Both the position numbers and the translations under genes were made by a program. The notes below the pieces were generated by a model. That model had not been told where the DNA came from and searched no databases. It saw nothing but the letters and a program-made list of their open reading frames with translations. This document shows, one piece after another, positions 46,809-61,973 of a stretch of DNA of 64,000 nucleotides. How positions within the stretch are numbered: the first letter of the stretch is position 1; every line of letters starts with the position of its first letter. The stretch is from the NCBI GenBank assembly GCA_000004695.1, contig CM000152.2:4128001-4192000 (forward strand), read 5' to 3'. The DNA comes from Dictyostelium discoideum (taxonomy: Eukaryota).

Positions 46809-47896
46809 TATTTATTTATTAATAAAAAGTGAAAATAATAGGTTTAAAATTAAATCCCCTTAGATGTAAAAGATCTCTAATTTATTAATTTTTTTTTTTT
46901 TTGTTGTTCTTTATGTCATCGTTCTTTAAATATTTTTTTTTTTTTTAAAAAAAACAAAATGAAGTTTAATATGTTTGTAAATTTTTGAAAAAGAAAAAAA
47001 GAAGAGCAAGAGAGGCGAGTTTGAAAAGAATTGTTGTTGGTTTTGTTCTTTTGAATATTATTTTCCTTACTGTAACGAAATATAGTTTGCTGTAATTTGA
47101 AACAATGATTTAAGTTTTAAAGGAAATTAAGGCCAAGAGACAAGTTCGAGAGATTTGAATTTTTTTTTTTAAAAAAATTATTAAATAATATAGTTACTGA
47201 ATTTTGTAAACAATGATTTATCTTAAATATTAAAATGAAAATGAACCTCCTTTTTTTGATAGGTATTAAAATTTAGTGTACTGGAAATAAAAAAAAATAT
47301 TAGAAAGGTATTTTTTTTTTAAAATGAATTATTATTATTAAACAATTACTATTATTTAAATTACCTGCATTATATACTGTGAATGGAAATATCTGTGCAC
47401 AAAATAAGTGATAGCGACTTTCCAAAAGTTTTTTAAACTAGAACCTTTTTTTGATTGAAAAATAACTTAATTTCATACCATCTTTTTTTTTTGAATAAAT
47501 ACATCCATTGTGAAACTCAATAGATATAATTATTGATTTTGAATTATTTTTTATGGTTTTTATATTTTTTTTTTTCCAAAAAAAAATAATTAAAGATTGT
47601 AATTCCAAAAAATTTCCTTGAAAATATTCACCTTCACTTTTTTTAATCTAGATTAAAAATTATTTTTATTATTGATAAAAAAATAAAAGAAAATAAAATG
47701 AAATTTCACAATTTAAATTAAAAAAAAAAAATAATGATTTTTTTTTATTGGGATTGAATTTCTAAAAAAAAAAAAAATTAAAGAGAAAATAAAAAAATAG
47801 GTTGCAATATTTGTTTTAATTTTCTTTTATTTTTTTTTTTTTTTTTATATATTAAATTATTTAATTTTATTTTTTTATTTAAAGTTAATTTTTTTC

Positions 47897-47931
<35 letters not shown>

Positions 47932-48224
47932 AGCCAACGCGCCAATGCTTTCCCTTGATTCGTCCCAAATTTATTAATTAGTTTGCAATTTTTTTTTTTT
48001 TTTTCACAAGCCAAGCGACCGACCACCCTCCAACGTTAAAAAAAACAATTTTTTTTAACATTTTTCACAATTTTTCATTTTTTTTGAATTTTTTTTTTTT
48101 GTTTTCTCTTCCAATTGGAATTTTATATTTTTTTTTTTCATTTTTTCAAATATTTTTCACAACCAACACCCACACAGATATTTTATTTCAAATAAACGTA
48201 TAAAAAAAAAAAAAAATACAATGG

Positions 48225-49722
48225 ATGAGTATTTTCTATCAATATCACTTAAGTGTTTTAAAAGGAACAAATCCAGAAGCCAAAAATAAAAAAGAAACTG
48301 ATAAAATTGAAAGTATTACAAAAAATTTCATTCTTGGAACTGTTGATGGAAAACAAGTATTACAAAAAAATGGTGAGTATGGTTTTTGAAAAAACAAAAA
48401 AAAAAAAAAAAAAAAAATTTTTAGTTTCCATTTTTCTAATTAATTAATTTTATTTTTATTTTTATTTTTGTTTATATTTATTATTTTTTATTTAATTTTT
48501 ATTTTTTTTTAAATAAATAGTTGCAGGTACATTTAGAATTGTTCCAAAAGAGTCTGAGAAAAATGCAATTTTAAGAGGTAACCATATTGTAGGTGGTGAA
48601 CATTTAAGTAAAACTAGACTCGTCGATAGTTTAAAGGGTCACTTTTGGGCATCAAAAATTCAAGATGTTGAAGCTTTTTTAGGTAAATGTTCAGAATGTT
48701 CATCAATTTATCCACTTAAAGATAAAAAAGAAGATGATGAAGATAAAGAAGAAAAGAAAGAGAAAAAAGATAAAAAAGAAAAGAAGGATGATAAAGAAGA
48801 TAAAGAGGATAAAGAAGAGAAAAAAGATAAAGACGAGAAAAAAAAGAAATCATCAAAGAAATCAAAAGAACCAAGTGATAATGAAACTGAAGAGGAAGAA
48901 GAAGAAGAAGAAGAGGAACCAGAAAAAAAACCAACTAAAAGCAGATCAAGATCATCTTTAGCCGCTGCAACAAAAACTGTAGCTAAAACACCAACTAGAT
49001 CAAAATCATCACTTAAAGAAAATGAAACTAAAGAAAAAGAAACCAAAGAAACCAAAGAAAAAGAAGCTAAAGAAAAAGAAGCTAAAGAAAAAGAAGCTAA
49101 AGAAAAAGAAACCAAAGAAAATGAAACAAAAGAAAAACCAAAAGGTAAAGGAAAAGAAACAAAAGAAAAAGAAAAAGAAAAAGAAAAAGAAAAAGAAAAA
49201 GAAAAAGAAAAAGAAAAAGAAAAAGAAAAGGAAAAGGAAAAGGAAAAGGAAAAAGAAAAAGAAAAAGAAAAAGAAAAGGAAAAGGAAAAAGAAAAGGAAA
49301 AAGAAAAAGAAAAACTAAAGGAAAAAGAAAAAGAAAAAGAAAAAGAAGCATCAGAGGGATCAGATTCAGATTCAGAAACTAAAGAATCTGGTAAAAAGAG
49401 AAAATCACCATCAACAACAGCATCAAAAAAGAAAGCAAAGGTCACAGCCTCTCGTTCAAATGTTACTAATAACACCAAAGAAGAGAGTGGTTCTTCAAAT
49501 GATACTGATGCTTCCTCAGCATCCGATAGTACTGCTCCAGAAGCATCCACTACCACCACCACTACCGAACCAAAGAAATCAATTCCAATGCCATCAAAAT
49601 CTGCTGTCAAATCATCAGCAAAGGTTCAACCAGAACAAAAATTCGGTGATGTTTCAATCACTGAATTAAAATCTGCCTTAGCTGTCATCACAAAAGTTAT
49701 CGAAGCCATGGAAAAGAAATAA
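48225..49722 (+). CDS. Hypothetical protein with a globular N-terminal domain of about 110 aa followed by a long (KE)n / KEKE-repeat acidic-basic region
   Basis: join(48225..48372,48521..49722). The start is the second ATG (48225). The first ATG at 48221 is in another frame and terminates after 22 codons. Donor AAT G|GTGAGT, acceptor aaatAG at 48520. A ttgcAG three nucleotides downstream is an in-frame alternative. The N-terminal domain reads ..GTFRIVPKESEKNAILRGNHIVGGEHLSKTRLVDSLKGHFWASKIQDVEAFLGKCSECSSIYP. It is followed by about 60 KE dipeptides, SDSDSE, and ends ...ELKSALAVITKVIEAMEKK*. Confidence 0.6.
49141..49332. repeat. (GAAAAA/GAAAAG)n hexanucleotide repeat encoding (KE)n
   Basis: Direct reading. 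It also creates the spurious antisense 300-aa (SF)n ORF 48708..49610. Confidence 0.95.
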
Positions 49723-50220
49723 ATAATTATAATTAATAATTAACGACAATATTAAAAACTACAAAAAAAAAAAAAAAAACCAGAAAAAAAAAAAAGAAAT
49801 AAAATAAAAAAAAAAAAATGTAAAGTTAAATCCTTTATTCACCAGCAATCCATATCGAAAAAAATCTTATTTATTTATATATTTTATTTTTATTTTAATT
49901 TTTTTTTTTTTTTTTTTTTTTGTAGTTTTGGAAATTAAAAAAAGATTTTTAAAAATCGTGATTGAAATTAATCTTGTTTTTTGGGTTTGTGGAAAAATAA
50001 AATAAAAAAAAAGAATAGTTGCGAAAATAAAAAAAGGAATTTGAGGAATTGTTTAATCTAAATAGAAAGATTTAAAGTTTTTACCAAAAATAACAACCCC
50101 TTCTTACCAATTTTGATTTTAATTTATTTCATTTATAATTTTTTTTTTTTTTTAGTTATGTTTAATTTTTTTTCTTATAATCTTTAATTTTTTTATTTTT
50201 TTTATAAATAAAAAAACTAC

Positions 50221-50252
<32 letters not shown>

Positions 50253-50285
50253 ATTTTTTATTATCCAAAGCGAGTTTTAATAAAA

Positions 50286-50320
<35 letters not shown>

Positions 50321-50378
50321 AAATTAAATTAAATTAAAAAAAAAAAAAAAAGAATCAATTAATTAAATAGTAATCATA

Positions 50379-51137
50379 ATGTTATTTAATCAATATGTAT
50401 TTAAATATAAACAAGGATTTTATGGTCATAGGGAGTATGATTCAGTTTATTCAATAGCGTTGATTGATAGTTTATCATTACAAGAATTTATTTTTATAGT
50501 TAATAATTTAAATTATAAAATGCCTTATTATCTCTCAATTTTAAATAGTATTGCTTTATTTTTAATTTTCCCAATTAATATATTTTTATTTATATTCCAT
50601 CATAATTCTTGGATACAAACTTTTTTTTTATTATTTTTAATAGTTTTTTCTATTTTTTTATTTTCTATTAATATTTTCGAATTATATTTAGTAAGATTTT
50701 AATTCTTTTTTCTTTCTTTAAATATATAATATTTACCTTTTTTTTTTTTTTTTTTTTTATTACAAATTTTTTTTTTTTATTAATAGCCTAAAAAGAGAAT
50801 AATTACATTTATAGAAGAATTAAATAATGAATATTCAAATAGATTAATTTCATTTCATATTAATCAAGAAGAGGACATTGTTTTATTATATCCATTACCA
50901 GATCATTTTTATAAAAATGTTCCTTTCCCTTTTTTCCAAATACATCAACCAATTCAACAAGATCAAAATCAACAATTACAGGAACCATTACCTGGTAAAC
51001 AATACCAAGAGCAACAAAAACATGAAACATATACTTCAATTGATTTTCAACCAATTATTGAAACAAATCAATATTCCGAGCCATTGTTATCAGAAATTGA
51101 AGAATATACTCCAATAGATTTAAAAGAACAAATTTAA
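50379..51137 (+). CDS. Hypothetical two-exon protein (about 220 aa) with a two-TM hydrophobic N-terminus and a Q/P-rich tail
   Basis: join(50379..50690,50787..51137). Donor TTA|GTAAGA, acceptor taatAG. Exon 2 is GC-richer and open to TAA (…[22 protein letters not shown]). No family recognised. Confidence 0.45.
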
Positions 51138-51326
51138 AAAGTGAAATTTATAAAATAGGATTTGAACCTATTCCATAACAAACTAGATCTTAAAAATTTT
51201 GAAAAAAAAAAAGATAGTTATCTTTTTTAACTATTAAACATACCCAAATAAAATAGATTATCTTATATATTAAAATTATTTTTCTATTTTTTGTTTTTAT
51301 TTTTAATTTAAATAATTATGTTTTAT

Positions 51327-52254
51327 TTATAATAATTTAATGAAATCAAAAGTTTGAACATCATTAGTATTGGTGATAGATTTGAAAGTGATAACAATGT
51401 TACCAGATTCGAATGACCATGACCAATAGCCACTTAAATTAGCATCGTGTTTAATAACGATAGTATGATTTGAAGTTACTTCTTGAACTGCTTCTAAAAT
51501 CATTTCATCTGCACAACGTTTTGAAAGATTTGCTGCTACTTTTTCAACGATACCAGCGAAGATATGACCGAAACTATTCTTTAAATCGTCAGCAACTTTT
51601 GGATAAACAGATTCTAATGATGATTCATCGATTGACCAATCTGATGATGATTTTAATGCTTTTTTAACTGATGATAAATTATCTTTCATTTTTTGTTCGT
51701 TTGTTTTAATATTTAAACGAGTCATTAATGAATAAACACCTTGAGTTTGAATAATTGTTTCTAATTTAAATGTGTTAACATCATTTGTGTTACATATCTT
51801 TGGACGGAATAAAATTTGACAATCACCATTTTCAAATTGATATTTCCAATATGATGATAACTTTTCATCAGCACAAACAAAAACAAATTTTTTATTTGGA
51901 ACTGCAGCTAAGAATGCTTCTTTGATTAAAGGATCTGCACCTACTTTAACCATGTTTTTAGCAAGATTACCAACAACATCTTTATAAAATATACTACCAC
52001 AACTATTTGTAACCCAAGAATCATTACATTTTGCAATAATATCTTCGAAATCAAATTCGATGGCAAATGGTTCCCCTAATGATTTTTCAATTAAGGCTAG
52101 ATTTGTTTTTAAAGATTCTTCATTATCTTTTAATGATTTTCTATAACAAATTGAATTTTTATATTAGTATTTATTTATATTAGGTATTGGTTTTTAATTA
52201 AACTTATTTTTTTAATTTAAATAATAAATACCTTGAAGTTAAAGCGAGAGGCAT
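51327..52254 (-). CDS. Copy 1 of a tandemly repeated gene encoding a 278-aa protein with two internal homologous repeats (unknown family)
   Basis: join(complement(51327..52140,52232..52254)). Exon 1 is ATGCCTCTCGCTTTAACTTCAAG (MPLALTS), with donor GTATTT, a 91-nt intron and acceptor ttatAG. Exon 2 reads KSLKDNEESLKTNLALIEKSLGEPFAIEFDFEDIIAKC..MVKVGADPLIKEAFLAAVP...FDFIKLL*. The internal repeat pairs SSYWKYQFENGDCQILFRPKICNTNDVNTFKLETI with SGYWSWSFESGNIVITFKSITNTNDVQTFDFIKL. Confidence 0.7.
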
Positions 52255-52318
52255 TTTAAAATTTTATTAGTATTTATATTATTTTTTTAAAAAAAAAAAA
52301 GAATTTATTATTTATAGT

Positions 52319-52354
52319 ATGTTTTGATTGAATGATTTGAAAAGAATAAAACAT
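52319..52354. promoter_or_regulatory. Conserved upstream element of array copy 1: atgttttgattgaatgatttgaaaagaataaaacat, with a 7-nt inverted repeat ATGTTTT...AAAACAT
   Basis: The element lies 65-100 nt 5' of the ATG. Near-identical elements sit at the same distance in copies 2 (55107..55142), 3 (57933..57967) and 4 (58261..58295, opposite strand). Confidence 0.35.
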
Positions 52355-52653
52355 TTTGTATTTATACTAAAATAAATTGGAAATAAAATTAATAATTTGA
52401 TTTTAAAAAAAAAAATAGAAAAAAATTAGATTCGGTGGTAAGAAATAATTTGAAAAAAAGATATTTTTATTAATTGGAATGAAAAAAAAAAAAATTTAAA
52501 AAAAAAAAAAAATTTTTAAACAAATATCTTAAGATTTTTTTTTTTTTTTCAAAAAGGAATTATAAATTATTTATTTAAATGTACAACAACTTAATTTAAA
52601 TAGTTTAAAATAGTTTTATATTATTAAATGAATGGTATTTTTAGATAAACAGT

Positions 52654-52940
52654 TTAAAGGTCAACATGAGCATATACTGCTAATATTGGATGGATAATAA
52701 CTAATGCATCAAGGGTTAAAAGAGCAGCATTATTATTAGATTGAGAAGTTCCAACAAAATGAGTTCCTGAAATTTGATTCTTTTGAGATGCACTTTGGAT
52801 ATTAGCAATTGAATTTAATGATTCTATTAGGTTTTTTAATTATTATTATTTTTTTTTTAAAACAATGTTAATTCTTAATTTTTTTTTTTTTTTTTTTTAT
52901 TTTTTTTTTTTTTTTTTTTTTATAACTTACTGAATAACAT
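52654..52940 (-). CDS. Small gene A (59 codons, 10-nt micro-exon 1): MLFKSLNSIANIQSASQKNQISGTHFVGTSQSNNNAALLTLDALVIIHPILAVYAHVDL
   Basis: join(complement(52654..52823,52931..52940)). Exon 1 is ATG TTA TTC A with donor GTAAGT, and the acceptor is cctaatAG. It belongs to an HssA/2C/7E-like small-protein family and forms an inverted pair with small gene B. Confidence 0.55.
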
Positions 52941-53556
52941 TTTAGATTTTTAACAATTTAATACAAGTGTTTGATTATTTTTAATGATTAAAAAAAATAT
53001 TTTTTATTCATTTTATAGTTTTTTTTTTTTAATAATATTATTGTATTTTAAAATTATTATTAAAAGATTTCATATAATTTAATAATGAAAAAATAACCAA
53101 GTGATCAATTTTGATCAGCTTTTGAATCAATTATCTATTCTAATCAGTTAGAATTTATTTATTAAAAATCACAAAATCTGTTATTTAAATTTTGTGGTAT
53201 ATTAATTAATAAAAAAAAAAAAAAGAAAAAAGAAAATTGTAAAAATAAAATTAAACACATTTTAATAAAACCTTTAATGTATTTAAATTCTATTTTTACA
53301 AAAAAATTTAACATCGTTTGTATTAGTGATTGAGATGGCAATTTTTTAAATTGACCATAATGGACATTTAAGAAAAATGTGAATTAAAACAATATTATTT
53401 TTGTTATTGCCAATTAATATTTTTTTTTTTTTTTTTTTTATCTATTAACACAAAAAAATAACAGATTTTGGGGTTTTTTTTTAAAATTTTAAAGTTTTAT
53501 TAATAAAATGATTGGAGATTAAAGTAACTTTTAAAAAATAATAAGTTTATTTATTT

Positions 53557-53588
<32 letters not shown>

Positions 53589-53681
53589 AATAATAATATC
53601 AATAATAAAAAAAACTATAAAATAAAAATTTTATTTTTTTAATTTAATCATTAAAATTAATTAAAATATTAAAAATTTAAA

Positions 53682-53955
53682 ATGTTATTCAGTAAGTTTA
53701 ATAAAAATTATAAAATTTGTAATATTTTTAATATTGAAAACAATTTAATATTAATTATATTAAAAAAATTATAAAAATTATTTAGAATCATTAAACTCAA
53801 TTGCCAATATCCAGAATTCATCTCAAAAGAATCAAATTTCAGGAACTCAATTAATTGGAACTTCTCAATCAAATAATAATGCTGCTCTTTTAACCCTTGA
53901 TGCATTAGTTATTATTCATCCAATATTAGCAGTATATGCTCATGTTGACCTTTAA
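53682..53955 (+). CDS. Small gene B (59 codons): MLFKSLNSIANIQNSSQKNQISGTQLIGTSQSNNNAALLTLDALVIIHPILAVYAHVDL
   Basis: join(53682..53691,53786..53955). Same structure as small gene A, inverted relative to it. The 0.73-kb spacer 52941..53681 lies between their 5' ends. Confidence 0.55.
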
Positions 53956-54116
53956 ACTGTTTTATTAAAAATATTAAAACTATTATAAAATAATTTGTTG
54001 TATTTTTAAATAAATAACTAATTTAATAAATTTTTAAAATTTCTTTTTCTATAAATTTAATCATTAAATTAAAAATAAAAAAATAGAAAAAAATATTTAT
54101 TTATTTAATGTTTTAT

Positions 54117-55047
54117 TTATAACAATTTAATGAAATCAAAAGTTTGAACGTCATTGGTATTGGTAATAGATTTGAAAGTGATAACAATGTTACCAGATTC
54201 GAATGACCATGACCAATAGCCACTTAAGTTAGCATCGTGTTTAATAACGATTGTATGATTTGAAGTTACTTCTTGAACTGCTTCTAAAATCATTTCGTCT
54301 GCACAACGTTTTGAAAGATTGGCTGCTACTTTTTCAACGATACCAGCAAAGATATGACCGAAACTATTCTTTAAATCGTCTGCGACTTTTGGATAAACAG
54401 ATTCTAATGATGATTCATCGATTGACCAATCTGATGATGATTTTAATGCTTTTTTAACTGATGATAAATTATCTTTCATTTTTTGTTCGTTTGTTTTAAT
54501 ATTTAAACGAGTCATTAATGAATAAACACCTTGAGTTTGAATAATTGTTTCTAATTTAAATGTGTTAACATCATTCGTGTTACATATCTTTGGACGGAAC
54601 AAAATTTGACAATCACCATTTTCAAATTGATATTTCCAATATGATGATAACTTTTCATCAGCACAAACAAAAACAAATTTTTTATTTGGAACTGCAGCTA
54701 AGAATGCTTCTTTGATTAATGGATCTGCACCTACTTTAACCATGTTTTTAGCAAGATTACCAACAACATCTTTATAAAATATACTACCACAACTATTTGT
54801 AACCCAAGAATCATTACATTTTGCAATAATATCTTCGAAATCAAATTCAATTGTAAATGTCTCACCTAATGATTTTTCAATTAAGGCTAAATTTGTTTTT
54901 AAAGATTCTTCATTATCTTTTAATGATTTTCTATAATAAATTATATATTTAAATTAGTATTTATTTATATTAAGGCATTGGTTTTTTAATACCTTATTTA
55001 GTTTTAAAACTAAATAATAAATACCTTGAAGTTAAAGCGAGAGGCAT
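54117..55047 (-). CDS. Copy 2 of the tandemly repeated 278-aa gene
   Basis: join(complement(54117..54930,55025..55047)). The protein is identical to copy 1 across the 208-aa ORF (ORF track). Confidence 0.7.
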
Positions 55048-55475
55048 TTTTAAAATTTGATTGTTATTTATTTTATTTAAAAAAAAAAGAATTTGTTATT
55101 TAAAATATATTTTGATTGAATGATTTGAAAAGAATAAAACATTTTGTATTTATACTAAAATAAATTGGAAAAAAAATTAATAATTTGTAGAAAAATAGAA
55201 AAAAAAAAGATTTGATAGTAAGAAATAATTTAAAACAAGATATTTTTAAAAATTGGAATGAAAAAAAAAAATCTAACAAAGATCTTTCATCAAAAAAAAA
55301 AAAAATAAAAAATAAAAAATAAAAAAAAAATAAAAATTTTTAAACAAATATCTGAAGAGGTTTTCTTTTTCTTTTTTTTTTCCCCAAAGGGAATAAATTT
55401 TTATTTAAATGTACAACAACTTAATTTTAATAGTTTTAAATTATTAAATGAAAATGGTATTTTTAGATAAACAGT

Positions 55476-55732
55476 TTAAAGGTCAACATGAGCATATACT
55501 GCTAATATTGGATGAATAATAACTAATGCATCAAGGGTTAAAAGAGCAGCATTATTATTTGATTGAGAAGTTCCAATTAATTGAGTTCCTAAAATTTGAT
55601 TCTTTTGAGATACACTTTGGACATTTGCAATTGAGTTTAATGATTCTATTAAGTTTTTTATAATTTTTTAAAGGTTAGTTTTAAATTGTTTTCAATATTA
55701 ATAATTTTATTATTTAACTTACTGAATAACAT
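55476..55732 (-). CDS. Small gene C (59 codons): MLFKSLNSIANVQSVSQKNQILGTQLIGTSQS...
   Basis: join(complement(55476..55645,55723..55732)). A paralogue of small genes A and B. It carries the TQLIG variant found in copy B. Confidence 0.5.
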
Positions 55733-56499
55733 TTTAGATTTTTAATATTTTTATACAATTTATTAATTTTAATAATTAAATTTAATAAAAAAATTTTATT
55801 TATAGTTTTTTTAATTGATATTATTATTTTTTTGTTTTTTTTTATTTTTTTTTTTTTTTTTTTAACAAATAAACAACCTTATTACTTTTTAAAAGTCGCT
55901 CTAATCTCCAATCATTTTATTAATAAAACTTTAAAATTTTAAAAAAATAAAAAAAAACCCAAAATCTGTTATTTTTTTTTGTGTTAATAGATAAATAAAA
56001 AAAAAAAATAAAAAAAATAAAAAAATAATAATAATTGGCAATAACAAAAATAATATTGTTTTTATTCACATTTTTCTAAAATGTCCATTATGGTCAATTT
56101 AAACAATTGCCATCTCAAACAATAATAAAAATGATGTTCAATTTTTTTCTATAAATACATTAAAGGTGTTATAAAAATGTGTTTAATTTTGTTGTTACCA
56201 TTATTTTATCTTTTTTTTTTTTTTTTTTTTTTTTTTGAATTAATTACCACAAAATTTATATAACGTGTTATGTGGTTTTTAATAAAATTTTTTTACTGAT
56301 TAATAGATAATTGATTCAGATAGCTGATCAAAATTGATCACTTGGTAAATTTTTCATTAAAAAAAATTATATGAAATTTTTTTAAAATAAATTTAAAATA
56401 CAATAATATTATTAAAAAAAAAACTATAAATGAATAAAAAAAAATTTTTTAATCATTAAAAATAATCAAACACTTGTATTAAATTTTTAAAAATCTAAA

Positions 56500-56768
56500 A
56501 TGTTATTCAGTAAGTTATAAAAAAAAAAAAAAAAAAAAAAAAAACTACAAAAAATTAACATTGTTTTAAAAAAAAAAATAATATAAAAAACCTAATAGAA
56601 TCATTAAATTCAATTGCTAATATCCAAAGTGCATCTCAAAAGAATCAAATTTCAGGAACTCAATTAGTTGGAACTTCTCAATCAAATAATAATGCTGCTC
56701 TTTTAACCCTTGATGCATTAGTTATTATTCATCCAATATTAGCAGTATATGCTCATGTTGACCTTTAA
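56500..56768 (+). CDS. Small gene D (59 codons): MLFKSLNSIANIQSASQKNQISGTQLVGTSQSNNNAALLTLDALVIIHPILAVYAHVDL
   Basis: join(56500..56509,56599..56768). It carries the QSAS variant found in copy A. Confidence 0.55.
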
Positions 56769-56949
56769 ACTGTTTAATTAATAATTTCAAAACTATTTTA
56801 AAAAATAATTTGTAGTATATTTAAATAAATAATTAATTTAAAAATTTCATTTTCTTTTATTTTAATTTAATAATTAAAATAAAATCTAAAACTTAATTTT
56901 TAAATAAAAAAAAGAAAAGATTATTTATTTTATTAATTTGATATTTTAT

Positions 56950-57867
56950 TTATAACAATTTTATGAAATCAAAAGTTTGAACGTCATTAGTATTGGTGAT
57001 AGATTTGAAGGTGATAACAATGTTACCAGATTCGAATGACCATGACCAATGACCATTTAAGTTAGCATCGTGTTTAATAACGATTGTATGTTTTGAAGTT
57101 ACTTCTTGAACTGCTTCTAAAATCATTTCGTCTGCACAACGTTTTGAAAGATTGGCTGCTACTTTTTCAACGATACCAGCAAAGATATGACCGAAACTAT
57201 TCTTTAAATCGTCTGCGACTTTTGGATAAACAGACTCTAATGATGATTCATCGATTGACCAATCTGATGATGATTTTAATGCTTTTTTAACTGATGATAA
57301 ATTATCTTTCATTTTTTGTTCGTTTGTTTTAATATTTAAACGAGTCATTAATGAATAAACACCTTGAGTTGGAATAATTGTTTCTAATTTAAATGTGTTA
57401 ACATCATTTGTGTTACAAATCTTTGGACGGAATAAAATTTGACAATCACCATTTTCAAATTGATATTTCCAATATGATGATAACTTTTCATCAGCACAAA
57501 CAAAAACAAATTTTTTATTTGGAACTGCAGCTAAGAATGCTTCTTTGATTAAAGGATCTGCACCTACTTTAACCATGTTTTTAGCAAGATTACCAACAAC
57601 ATCTTTATAAAATATACTACCACAACTATTTGTAACCCAAGAATCATTACATTTTGCAATAATATCTTCGAAATCAAATTCAATTGCAAATGGCTCACCT
57701 AATGATTTTTCAATTAAGGCTAAATTTGTTTTTAAAGATTCTTCATTATCTTTTAATGATTTTCTATAATAAATTATAATATAAGTATAAATTAATATAT
57801 ATTTTTATTAATCTTTTTAATAACATTTAATTATAATAAAATACCTTGAAGTTAAAGAGAGTGGCAT
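56950..57867 (-). CDS. Copy 3 of the tandemly repeated 278-aa gene (variants: MPLSLT.., IIPTQ, TSKHT, NLNGHW)
   Basis: join(complement(56950..57763,57845..57867)). Confidence 0.7.
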
Positions 57868-58362
57868 TTTTAATTATTTTTTTAATTATTTTAAATAAAA
57901 AGAGTCACAAAAAAGAGTTTATTATTTATAATATGTTTTGATTGAATGGTTTGAAAAGAAAAAAATATTTTGTATTTATACAAAAAAAAAGAAAGTAAAA
58001 AAAAAACTTTAAAATAAAATTAGAAAAAAAAAAGATTGGATAATCAGAAATAAAAAAAAAAATAAAAATAAAAAAAAAACTAAGATATGTCAAAATAAAA
58101 AAATTAGAAAAAAAAAAGATTTTTTAAAATTTCTGATATATTCTTCCAAAATAAAAAAATATCTTTACTGGTTTTTTTTCATTTTATTTCTAAAAACTTA
58201 ATCTTTTTTTTTTCTAATTAAAACTATTATTATATTTATTATTATTTTTTTTTTAATATAAATAAACAAAATGTTTTATTGTTTCAAATCATTAAATCAA
58301 AACATAAAAAATAGTAAACACCTTTTTTTTAAAAAAAATAAACAAAAATAATTAATTTCAAA
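57868..58362. promoter_or_regulatory. 495-bp divergent intergenic region between head-to-head array copies 3 (-) and 4 (+)
   Basis: It contains two copies of the conserved ATGTTTTG..CAAAACAT element, one per strand (57933..57967 and 58261..58295). Confidence 0.35.
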
Positions 58363-59263
58363 ATGCCTCTCGCTTTAACATCAAGGTATATATTTTTTTT
58401 TTTTTTTTTTTTTTTTTAAATTGTTAATATTAATAAATTTTAATTATAGAAAATCATTAAAAGATAATGAAGAATCTTTAAAAACAAATTTAGCCTTAAT
58501 TGAAAAATCGTTAGGTGAGCCATTTGCAATTGAATTTGATTTCGAAGATATTATTGCAAAATGTAATGATTCTTGGGTTACAAATAGTTGTGGTAGTATA
58601 TTTTATAAAGATGTTGTTGGTAATCTTGCTAAAAACATGGTTAAAGTAGGTGCAGATCCATTAATCAAAGAAGCATTCTTAGCTGCAGTTCCAAATAAAA
58701 AATTTGTTTTTGTTTGTGCTGATGAAAAGTTATCATCATATTGGAAATATCAATTTGAAAATGGTGATTGTCAAATTTTGTTCCGTCCAAAGATATGTAA
58801 CACGAATGATGTTAACACATTTAAATTAGAAACAATTATTCCAACTCAAGGTGTTTATTCATTAATGACTCGTTTAAATATTAAAACAAACGAACAAAAA
58901 ATGAAAGATAATTTATCATCAGTTAAAAAAGCATTAAAATCATCATCAGATTGGTCAATCGATGAATCATCATTAGAATCTGTTTATCCAAAAGTTGCTG
59001 ACGATTTAAAGAATAGTTTCGGTCATATCTTCGCTGGTATCGTTGAAAAAGTAGCAGCAAATCTTTCAAAACGTTGTGCAGATGAAATGATTTTAGAAGC
59101 AGTTCAAGAAGTAACTTCAAATCATACTATCGTTATTAAACACGATGCTAATTTAAGTGGCTATTGGTCATGGTCATTCGAATCTGGTAACATTGTTATC
59201 ACCTTTAAATCAATCACCAATACAAATGATGTTCAAACCTTTGATTTCATTAAATTGTTATAA
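58363..59263 (+). CDS. Copy 4 of the repeated 278-aa gene, in inverted orientation
   Basis: join(58363..58385,58450..59263). Exon 1 is MPLALTS, with donor AG|GTATAT and acceptor attatAG. Exon 2 matches ORF 58421..59263 (IIPTQ variant). Confidence 0.75.
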
Positions 59264-59405
59264 ATAATAATTCAAAATAAAAATAAATAAACTCATTTAA
59301 AAACTAACTATTAATTTATTTAAATTATTTATATTATTTATTATTTTCTTTTTATTTTTTTTTATTTTTTTTTTTTTTATTTTTTTTTTTTTTTTTGTTA
59401 ATTTA

Positions 59406-59472
59406 TTAATTCTTTTTAAATTTATTATTAAAGTTACTGTATTTAACTGATTTTGATTTTAATTTATCAGTG

Positions 59473-59510
<38 letters not shown>

Positions 59511-61627
59511 TGAATGATCGATAGATAAAGATGATGATTTTGTTGAAATAAATAAAAGTTTAAAGATACCTAAATAAATTGGTACTAAACCAAATATGAA
59601 AAAAGGGAAGAATAAGAAACCCCAATTATTTGAAGCTAAAATTATACCAATGAATAAATTTTTCCAACCTATTGACCAAAGTGCCCACCATTCGAATACT
59701 AAAAACGTTGGATGAGAAACCAAACAAATGATCATCCAAATTAATTTGACAAGTTTTGATTTAACTTTATTTTCCAATATAAAAGTTGTAAAATGTAATG
59801 TTGGTAATGATAAAACAATAAATAAACATGTAAATTGGTTATTTAACATCATACCCATTAATCCCAATAATGCATAATCTATAAAAAAAAAAAAAAATTA
59901 ATAATAAATATATAAATTATTTATATATAAATAAAATAAAACTTACATAATAATAAAATTGTTTGGGTACCATACCAATCATTTTTATTAAAAGTTGGAA
60001 AAGATATTGATAAAATTTTAGTTATATATTTTGAAATTGGTGATAAAATGAAAAAGTAAAATGAAATACACGCTAAAAAAAAAGTGAAAGAAAAGAAAAT
60101 GATTTGATTCTCTATTGAATTTGTAATTGATAATGTTGAGAATAGATTATTTAAAAGCTGTGATGATTTATATAAATTTGCAGGTTGTAAATCATTAGTT
60201 GGAATTAAATTAAAACTTGATAAAAACCAAGGTAACAATAAAATAGTTGAACAAAATAAAAGTATTGATAGAAACCATGGTAAAGATAATAGAATTCTAA
60301 TTGTAATATTCTCAATTGAAATAGAAATCGATATCAATTGTAAGAAAATCCCAACACTAAATACAATCACTGGTAACAATGCTTGACCCAAATCAATGAA
60401 AAACACAGCACCCGCCATCATATACCATCTATAACTTTGATGTAATTGTTCATCTGCATTATGTAAATGTCTAATAACAGTCTCCATTATTTTCCCCAAA
60501 TTAAAAAATGTTGTATTACTTAATGGTTCTTCATTAAATCTTTATTTTTTAAATAAAATAATAAAAGTTAATAATATATTATTAATTTATTTATTATTAT
60601 TATTATTTATTTAATTAATTATTACCTTTTAATATTTTTATGAATTTTATGTAATGGTGTATTTAAGAAATCAATATCCCAAACATTATGAGAATGGTCA
60701 GTACTGACACCAACTGAATTGATACCATATTGAGTGAATATTGCATGATTTGAACGTGGTAATGATAAAGCGGAATTCCACATGAAAATTAATAAACCAT
60801 AGAGTGAACCTTCAACAGCTTCTTGATCCATATGAGTGTTTATACCAGCTGGTATATCATTTAAGAATGATGTAGTGGTGATTACATTTAATATATCTAA
60901 ATTTGATAAACCACCTTTTAAACCCTCTGGGTACACTAAAATTCTCTCCATATTTTTATTACCAACCCTATCAATTGCAATTGCACCATAAATTTGACCT
61001 GCTCTTAATAATGTTTTTGATGAATAATTATTTTCTAAAGAATTTCCTTTCTGTTGTTGTTGTTGTTGTTGTTGTTGATGATCACCACCACCAGCAGTCC
61101 AACCAACTGGTTTAACACTATAGTAATCATTTAACCAAACTGATATACCTGAAATATCCATTGATGTACCACCATTAATTTCACCACCTTCACTTGTGAA
61201 AACATATATTATATCTCTTGCTTGCCATGATGTATTCTTTAAATACTCTGAAAATCCAATTAAAAATCCAACTGATCCTGCACTATGCCATTGATCAAAT
61301 GATGTTGTCAATACAAAATTCTCTGTACCTAATGATCTAATTGCTTTTGATATACCAATTACATTTACTCCTATCCTATCTATTAATTAAAATAATAATA
61401 ATAAATTAATATATTGAATATATTATATATATATATATATATATATACAACCACAATAACAAATCTTACTAAATGATGAATTAAAAAAATATAATTGAGT
61501 TTCTAAACCCAATTGATCTAATTGATATTTTATCCAATTTGCGCTATTTAATGCCTCATTTGAACCTAATGACCTATTCGGGAACTATATACACATATAA
61601 GAAATAATATATTAATTATAATTTGTT

Positions 61628-61689
<62 letters not shown>

Positions 61690-61973
61690 CTGTTAATTAA
61701 AATAATAATTACCAGGGTTTTAAAATCGTTTGAATAATTTATACAAATATCTGCAAATTGATTAGATATAAATGGGCTAACTGTACATTGTAAATTCTTT
61801 TCTGATACATAAGTGTGTGAACCGAGAAAAGGAAGAAAGAAAATCAGAAATATTGATCCTAAATGAACTGTTATAGAAAGTATTGAAATAATCTTTAAAT
61901 TTTTGAAAAACGGATATAATATATTAAATGCTTGATATCCAACACTTTCAACTTCTGCTATCAATCCCTTCAT
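59406..61973 (-). CDS. gpaa1: GPI transamidase component GAA1 (GPAA1), about 731 aa
   Basis: join(complement(59406..59878,59947..60539,60626..61379,61470..61584,61713..61973)). The N-terminus is a TM segment followed by HTYVSEKNLQ (compare human TYMSENAMG). Further matches are WIKYQLDQLGLETQLYFF (compare [20 protein letters not shown]), SWQARDIIYVFT (compare WAKDIVFLVT), GAIAIDRVG..GGLSNLDILNVI and a polytopic C-terminal half. The five exons have GTAATT, GTAAGA, GTAATA and GTAAGT donors with closed phases. Confidence 0.85.
61622..61689. repeat. Poly(T) homopolymer of about 68 nt inside gpaa1 intron 1 (poly(A) on the coding strand)
   Basis: Direct reading. Confidence 0.95.

Follow-up and report, generated by a model that had tools for sequence, protein, structure and literature searches.

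Is the block of near-identical repeats that lies between positions 51327 and 59263 of a 64,000-nucleotide stretch of Dictyostelium discoideum AX4 chromosome 3 (assembly GCA_000004695.1, contig CM000152.2, positions 4,128,001 to 4,192,000 of the forward strand; hereafter the window) a cluster of host genes, a mobile element or an error of assembly? The array contains four big genes (A to D), each encoding a protein of 278 amino acids (aa), and four small genes of 59 codons (s1 to s4), and it corresponds to the annotated run DDB_G0281187 to DDB_G0281201 in the order DDB_G0281187 (A), DDB_G0281189 (s1), DDB_G0281191 (s2), DDB_G0281193 (B), DDB_G0281195 (s3), DDB_G0281197 (s4), DDB_G0281199 (C) and DDB_G0281201 (D). 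All eight predicted proteins are exact matches to hypothetical proteins already annotated in AX4, so the genes as such are not new. On the evidence presented below, the array is very probably a host multigene cluster that has been amplified locally and homogenised by recombination, rather than a mobile element or an assembly artefact.

Gene models were obtained from a listing of the open reading frames (ORFs), by direct reading and by splicing by hand. The features of the array and of its single-copy flank, in window coordinates, are:

51306-58053, minus strand: direct repeats defined by a BLAST comparison of the window with itself (self-BLAST), namely unit 1 (51306-54094), unit 2 (54095-56919) and partial unit 3 (56920-58053)
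51327-52254, minus strand: big gene A (DDB_G0281187), exon 1 at 52232-52254 and exon 2 at 51327-52140; exact protein match
52654-52940, minus strand: small gene s1 (DDB_G0281189), exon 1 at 52931-52940, intron of 107 nt, exon 2 at 52654-52823; 59 aa
52941-53681: centre 1, the shared 5' region of the divergent genes s1 and s2, inverted relative to centre 2
53682-53955, plus strand: small gene s2 (DDB_G0281191), exon 1 at 53682-53691, intron of 94 nt, exon 2 at 53786-53955; 59 aa
54117-55047, minus strand: big gene B (DDB_G0281193), exon 1 at 55025-55047 and exon 2 at 54117-54930
55476-55732, minus strand: small gene s3 (DDB_G0281195), exon 1 at 55723-55732, intron of 77 nt, exon 2 at 55476-55645; 59 aa
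55733-56499: centre 2, between the divergent genes s3 and s4, oriented like the single centre of two other genomes (L007 and L010, see below)
56500-56768, plus strand: small gene s4 (DDB_G0281197), exon 1 at 56500-56509, intron of 89 nt, exon 2 at 56599-56768; 59 aa
56950-57867, minus strand: big gene C (DDB_G0281199), exon 1 at 57845-57867 and exon 2 at 56950-57763
57868-58362: spacer of 495 bp between the divergently transcribed genes C and D, without a small gene
58363-59263, plus strand: big gene D (DDB_G0281201), exon 1 at 58363-58385 and exon 2 at 58450-59263
59406-61973, minus strand: gene for Gaa1, a subunit of the glycosylphosphatidylinositol (GPI) transamidase, spanned by ORF fragments and with approximate ends; single-copy flank and synteny anchor outside the array

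An earlier note on this DNA, written from the sequence alone, had described four near-identical 278-aa copies with a period of about 2.8 kb on the minus strand and a fourth copy inverted on the plus strand at 58363-59263, and all of these main elements are present where it placed them. The start-to-start spacing of the direct copies is 2790 bp (A to B) and 2833 bp (B to C), and self-BLAST aligned A with B at 93.8% identity over 1193 bp and A with C at 90.9% over 1163 bp, while the inverted copy D matched at 96.5-98.1%. Repeats of such length and identity cannot arise by chance. Each big gene has two exons (MPLALTSR/KSLKDNEE...), separated by an intron of 91 nt in A, 94 nt in B, 81 nt in C and 64 nt in D. 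The partial unit 3 consists of gene C and about 190 bp of its upstream sequence. The four proteins are 97.5-99.6% identical in pairwise comparisons, with differences at 1 to 7 of the 278 residues; the high identity reported before thus holds up to an upper bound that had been set at 100%, since no two copies are identical, and the list of substitutions that had been thought complete (Q/P, N/K, SGY/NGH and A/S) lacked P32T and A34T in copy B.

The small genes have a first exon of only 10 nt, ATGTTATTCA, which is followed by the donor GTAAGT and an intron of 77-107 nt in the window. They are arranged as pairs in the A-B and B-C intervals, s1 being located 399 bp upstream of A and s3 428 bp upstream of B on the same strand as the respective big gene, while s2 is convergent with B and s4 with C. 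The previous description of one pair of inverted 59-codon genes in every interval between big copies is correct for these two intervals, with the refinement that the genes of a pair are head-to-head (divergent), and incorrect for the C-D interval, in which we found only a weak internal inverted repeat (57960-58065 and 58172-58277).

Near-identical repeats in an old Sanger assembly carry a general risk of having been collapsed or expanded, and an incorrect copy number is the first alternative to be considered. We compared the window with GCA_054883475.1 (L006), an independent chromosome-scale assembly, which probably belongs to the long-read genome set of PMC12745789 that includes strain AX2. 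The two are colinear over window positions 46942-61652 (14.7 kb) with an identity of 99.89%, and the same four big and four small genes are present in the same order and with the same spacing. Each copy also carries private substitutions and has an intron length of its own. With both lines of evidence in agreement, we consider it extremely improbable that the array is an artefact.

To place the array in a wider context, we examined the same locus in D. citrinum (L008), in a wild isolate of D. discoideum (L007) and in D. cf. discoideum (L010), which is possibly a cryptic species. The locus adjoins Gaa1 in all five genomes, the identity of this gene being given by the domain PF04114:Gaa1 in the adjoining called gene of L006, L008 and L010, and a divergent pair of big genes beside Gaa1 is common to all of them. 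The number of copies differs. D. citrinum has only the divergent pair with a single small gene in between (big on minus, small on plus, big on plus), and this small gene (L008 9170-9460) encodes 59 aa, is 74% identical and retains the micro-exon. L007 and L010 have three big genes and one pair of small genes each, and AX4 and L006 have four big genes and two pairs. Window positions 54094-61080 and 48464-52520 have aligned counterparts in L007, which is therefore short of precisely one 2.8-kb unit, as would be expected if paralogous units had undergone unequal crossing-over. Since the repeat unit holds both types of genes and occurs in a locus with 2, 3 or 4 big copies at the same syntenic site, the earlier view of a locally amplified two-gene cassette is well founded. 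The copy beside Gaa1 in L010 (8622-9601) aligns in two frames and was called as a protein of 252 aa; it could be a frameshifted pseudogene or the result of a sequencing error.

A second AX4 cluster, DDB_G0281613/615/617, is located about 0.5 Mb away on the same chromosome and consists of two tandem big genes and one small gene. The latter, DDB_G0281615 (L001 9232-9513), encodes 58 aa with 46% identity to the array genes, has a 10-nt exon 1 as well, and lies on the same strand between DDB_G0281613 and DDB_G0281617. None of the loci examined for paralogues of the big gene (L001, L012, L002-L004 and L009) carries the array unit.

Could the array instead be a composite mobile element, that is, a cargo-carrying transposon with the inverted copies A and D as its ends? 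These copies do form inverted repeats of about 0.9 kb that are 95-98% alike and enclose 6.3 kb, and genes C and D rise together with retrotransposons when DnmA is deleted. In RNA-seq data from a knockout of DnmA (DNMT2), DDB_G0281199 and DDB_G0281201 were among 28 up-regulated genes with log2 fold changes of 3.9 and 2.1, respectively, values for which the assignment of reads among the near-identical copies was not addressed, and TRE5-A, TRE3-B, Skipper, Tdd-4 and hspG genes were up-regulated with them (PMC12405889). The table in question lists C and D as 'unknown' (PMC12405889). A literature search with the gene and UniProt identifiers returned only this table, for C and D, and one pull-down table, for a paralogue of 695 aa; none of the array identifiers is present in the supplements of the DnmA paper.

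The sequence of the region speaks against such an element. The ORF list for the array region contains no transposase, reverse transcriptase or integrase, and there are no other long ORFs in the 50-60 kb interval; no Pfam family was found in the big and small proteins, to which that scan was confined, and tRNA and Rfam scans of the whole window gave no match. Moreover, the site is fixed beside Gaa1 in five genomes, and the supposed ends are intron-containing host genes that are under strong purifying selection and have orthologues across Dictyostelia. The idea of a mobile element, which the earlier note had also rejected, is effectively refuted, and we assign it next to no probability.

To understand how the copies are kept alike, we analysed the divergence of the big genes within and between genomes. 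In a neighbour-joining tree of the coding sequences, the copies cluster by genome and not by position. Distances within a genome are 0.5% in D. citrinum, 1.1-1.7% in L007 and 2.1-3.2% in AX4, whereas the distance between AX4 and D. citrinum is 9-10%. The four AX4 copies differ from each other at 17-26 coding sites, corresponding to synonymous substitution frequencies (dS) of 0.07-0.14 and nonsynonymous frequencies (dN) of 0.002-0.011. The resulting dN/dS ratios are about 0.02-0.16, so strong purifying selection acts on the big copies. Only about 60-85% of the introns and of the 250 bp upstream can be aligned, and every copy has private substitutions as well as its own intron length. The relationships among the copies are mosaic: although A and D form the two inverted ends, they are identical over nucleotides 417-776, a segment in which five other variants are common to B and C, and A is the outlier in the first approximately 100 nucleotides of the coding sequence.

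These patterns indicate that the likeness of the big genes is maintained by concerted evolution, presumably through gene conversion and unequal crossing-over. Because the dS values between copies are as high as 0.07-0.14, concerted evolution would account for the data better than a very recent duplication, and gene conversion is suggested because the relationships shift along the gene. The locus combines the direct period, the likeness within genomes, the mosaic tracts and the variation in copy number that are characteristic of a tandem array.

A further rearrangement is seen in the centres between the divergent small genes, which are 741-767 bp in size. Centre 1 matches centre 2 only in reverse (52941-53681 against 56499-55741, 84.6% identity over 784 columns), and it is the centre of unit 2 that has the same orientation as in L007 and L010. 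The flanks of the small genes are chimeric in a consistent manner. In promoter and intron, s1 resembles s4 (84% and 79%) and s2 resembles s3 (76% and 65%), whereas in the 3' flank s1 resembles s3 (67%) and s2 resembles s4 (76%). The second exons are 94-98% identical between the copies. Since the 5' and 3' relationships change consistently, the breakpoints lie inside exon 2, and as judged from these alignments, the module of about 1.1 kb between the small genes was flipped in unit 1 by recombination between the inverted exon-2 repeats.

Within centre 1, a stretch at 53301-53333 on the minus strand, with a counterpart near 56100-56140, reads AISITNTNDVKFF and resembles the conserved motif KSITNTNDVQTF of the big protein; it sits in an island of 148 bp that is conserved at 91%, above the rest of the centre. 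We considered that it could be a relic of the 3' end of a big gene ('SITNTNDVKFF', 53333-53301). The match is not significant (tblastn, E=3.4), a small-word blastn comparison of the centres with gene D gave only AT-rich noise, and the idea was set aside.

We infer an order of events that would start with two divergent big genes and a single small gene next to Gaa1, a layout that D. citrinum retains. The small gene would have become an inverted, head-to-head pair in the discoideum clade, and the 2.8-kb unit of one big gene and one small pair could then have been multiplied via unequal crossing-over between paralogous copies, leading to three big copies in wild isolates and four in the laboratory lineage derived from NC4. 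Ongoing gene conversion, also between the inverted ends A and D, would keep the coding sequences alike within a genome, and recombination between inverted exon-2 sequences of the small genes would have flipped the module of about 1.1 kb in unit 1.

Several points weigh against the interpretation as a locally amplified and homogenised host cluster, or against details of it. The grouping by genome could in principle reflect independent duplications in each lineage; the divergent pair shared beside Gaa1 and the mosaic tracts argue against this. No single event can be reconstructed that leads from the D. citrinum layout to the discoideum layout. That GCA_054883475.1 represents AX2 is deduced from PMC12745789. 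Finally, four recent genome annotations do not call the small genes.

The last point raises the question of whether the 59-codon ORFs are genes at all, or rather conserved non-coding sequences (promoters, regulatory elements or non-coding transcripts, for instance) in which a reading frame stays open by chance. Apart from being uncalled in these annotations, they are very short and have no homologues outside the discoideum/citrinum clade. To address this question, we examined eight copies, four from the window, two from L007, one from D. citrinum and the paralogue DDB_G0281615; the comparison extended over 5 assemblies, from two species and D. cf. discoideum. All eight have an intact ORF of 58-59 codons in which start (ATG), stop, reading frame and both splice sites (donor GTAAGT, acceptor AG) are preserved, while the introns (77 to 111 nt across the copies) and the flanks, which are full of indels, decay. 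In the alignment of the six copies from the discoideum clade, the final 27 codons show synonymous changes only, and even DDB_G0281615 has the same architecture at 46% identity. The dN/dS ratio relative to D. citrinum is about 0.3-0.5, which is a moderate constraint only and as such leaves some room for the non-coding alternative. Purifying selection nevertheless acts on both types of genes in the array. Weighing these data, we regard non-coding sequence as an unlikely explanation, albeit one with a small share of the probability, and the small ORFs are probably real, young and fast-evolving genes. The array products in general are presumably functional proteins.

A profile search with the small protein against 5.8 billion proteins recovered only five AX4 genes (DDB_G0281189, DDB_G0281191, DDB_G0281195, DDB_G0281197 and DDB_G0281615), and there was no match to Pfam at E<=1. 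The small gene is an orphan restricted to the discoideum/citrinum clade. Dictyostelium has multicopy, clustered families of small proteins of the hssA/2C/7E type. The 59-aa product is short and rich in Ser and Asn, with an N-terminus of the form M-x-(L/I)-F-x-S-(I/L)-x-S-I-x-N, features that may recall these families. Membership was rejected, given that there is no Pfam match and that the profile finds only the five AX4 genes; the C-terminal half of the product is unrelated.

What, then, is the big protein? It consists of two copies of an unnamed alpha/beta domain of about 140 aa. The internal duplication reported previously is real, with halves that are 37% identical over 132 aa (E=1e-20), and a profile derived from single-domain members recognises the N- and C-terminal halves of each of the four window proteins with E-values of 1e-34 to 1e-36. 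The earlier note had seen no recognisable family, and Pfam indeed gives no credible one, the sole match being a spurious hit to Herpes_UL35 (E=0.19). It had missed a large family without a name: a profile search of 1.84 billion representatives recovered 313 proteins (cluster representatives) at E<=1e-3. These have 1 to 5 domains per protein, two being the most common number. The named members are from Dictyostelium, Acytostelium, Cavenderia, Physarum, Mastigamoeba and the heterolobosean Percolomonas, and the remainder are from short environmental contigs. The family consensus is LPL..RKNI.DNE...L..I..A.G...E.D...G...L..LA...KD.M.KEAF...I.F...F..G.L....N..., with G30, G56, D77, K81, E82, G113 and N125 as the best-conserved residues. 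Many members start with MPL or M.LPL and most end in Leu, -LL being the most common terminus (84 of the 198 proteins retrieved). Two distant members, P0071 (Percolomonas) and P0130, have an N-terminal PH domain followed by several domains of about 140 aa.

The structure was modelled with AlphaFold2, which yielded a mean confidence score (predicted local distance difference test, pLDDT) of 87 for the full protein and of 94.7 for the single domain, for which the predicted template modelling score (pTM) was 0.88. The predicted topology is alpha-alpha-beta-alpha-alpha-alpha-beta3-alpha. Neither a sequence profile search of the PDB nor a Foldseek search of the model against the PDB (E<0.1) produced a match for the big protein. 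Two folds were considered as candidates. The resemblance to the C-lobe of HECT E3 ligases is one of fold only; the Z score never reached 8, sequence identity was 5-10% and the big protein has no N-lobe. A HECT C-lobe would have a conserved catalytic Cys in the loop that follows the beta-sheet. In an alignment of 231 diverse domain instances, the conserved residue is N125 (204/219), the adjacent C124 is not among the conserved columns, and repeat 2 of AX4 has Thr at that place, and so we do not assign the protein to the HECT family. Likewise, a zincin-like fold (the catalytic domain of M1 aminopeptidases, Wss1/SprT and MATCAP) was seen only at Foldseek E-values that were all >0.1, and the protein is not assigned to the zincin metallopeptidases, as it has no HExxH motif and the family no conserved His. 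No conserved Cys/His catalytic motif is evident in the family alignment, and inspection by eye, with no predictor used, revealed neither a signal peptide nor a transmembrane segment in the big protein. Because there are no conserved catalytic residues and the architecture is repetitive, we tentatively suggest, with low confidence, that it may be a non-enzymatic binding or scaffold protein of the cytosol.

With both products described, it can be asked whether the two kinds of genes were co-amplified because they act together, as a functional two-gene module such as a peptide with its binding partner or an antidote-like pair. In three settings (the array, DDB_G0281613/615/617 and D. citrinum), a big gene is preceded on its own strand, at a distance of approximately 400-550 bp, by a small gene, and the small family has no members anywhere else that the profile search would reveal. 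However, small genes were not found beside the singleton paralogue DDB_G0271254 or at the loci examined in D. dimigraforme, D. purpureum and Acytostelium, and the small gene is much younger and much less widely distributed than the family of the big gene. Within the array itself, no big gene lies downstream of s2 or s4, and co-duplication of neighbours suffices to explain why the two are amplified together. We therefore think that a functional module is rather improbable. A bolder version would combine the undescribed domain family, known from Amoebozoa and Percolomonas and with a fold that lacks a close solved relative, with a dedicated 59-aa partner into a rapidly amplifying module that responds to genome stress. 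The stress response is proposed because transcripts of C and D increase alongside those of retrotransposons and small heat-shock genes upon deletion of DnmA, and our estimate of the likelihood of this version is lower still.

As a locally amplified and homogenised cluster of host genes, the array can be compared with known systems. It shares the adjacent paralogues with a regular period, a likeness within the genome that exceeds that of positional orthologues, the mosaic tracts and the copy-number differences between strains with the tandem arrays of Trypanosoma brucei (PMC1855330) and with duplicates in Drosophila that undergo interlocus gene conversion (PMC2588116). Unlike these, it has only 4 copies, which makes it very small, and direct copies occur in it together with an inverted one; its unit also includes an unrelated second gene, present as an inverted pair, and this has permitted an internal inversion. 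The tgrB/tgrC locus (PMC12745789) belongs to the same genus and genome set and is similar in that local duplication and shuffling of a divergent pair varies between isolates. However, the tgr genes encode polymorphic, rapidly diversifying surface proteins, whereas the array genes are homogenised and under purifying selection.

The array is thus a textbook example of a small tandem array, an ordinary kind of host gene cluster. Its value lies in that a single locus of 8 kb appears to display unequal crossing-over, gene conversion between direct as well as inverted copies, and an inversion between inverted repeats, for which the sequenced Dictyostelium genomes provide a graded series with 2, 3 and 4 copies. 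The 59-aa gene is a candidate for a young orphan, the birth of which would be datable to the discoideum/citrinum clade. The big protein offers the more useful lead: it belongs to an unnamed domain family that numbers hundreds of members among amoebae and environmental sequences of eukaryotes and has neither a Pfam entry nor a solved relative.

The window is extremely AT-rich, with a G+C content of 15-32% in bins of 2 kb, and contains the poly-A/T and poly-Q/N features that are typical of Dictyostelium. Long T-rich tracts flank the array (59340-59400), and a poly(T) run of about 65 nt is located near or within the Gaa1 gene (61630-61700). On the other side of the array, positions 48695-49610 contain a long imperfect repeat with a period of 9-12 nt. 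Its minus strand gives (SF)n and its plus strand a K-rich sequence, and the repeat probably belongs to the neighbouring gene as a coding segment of low complexity.

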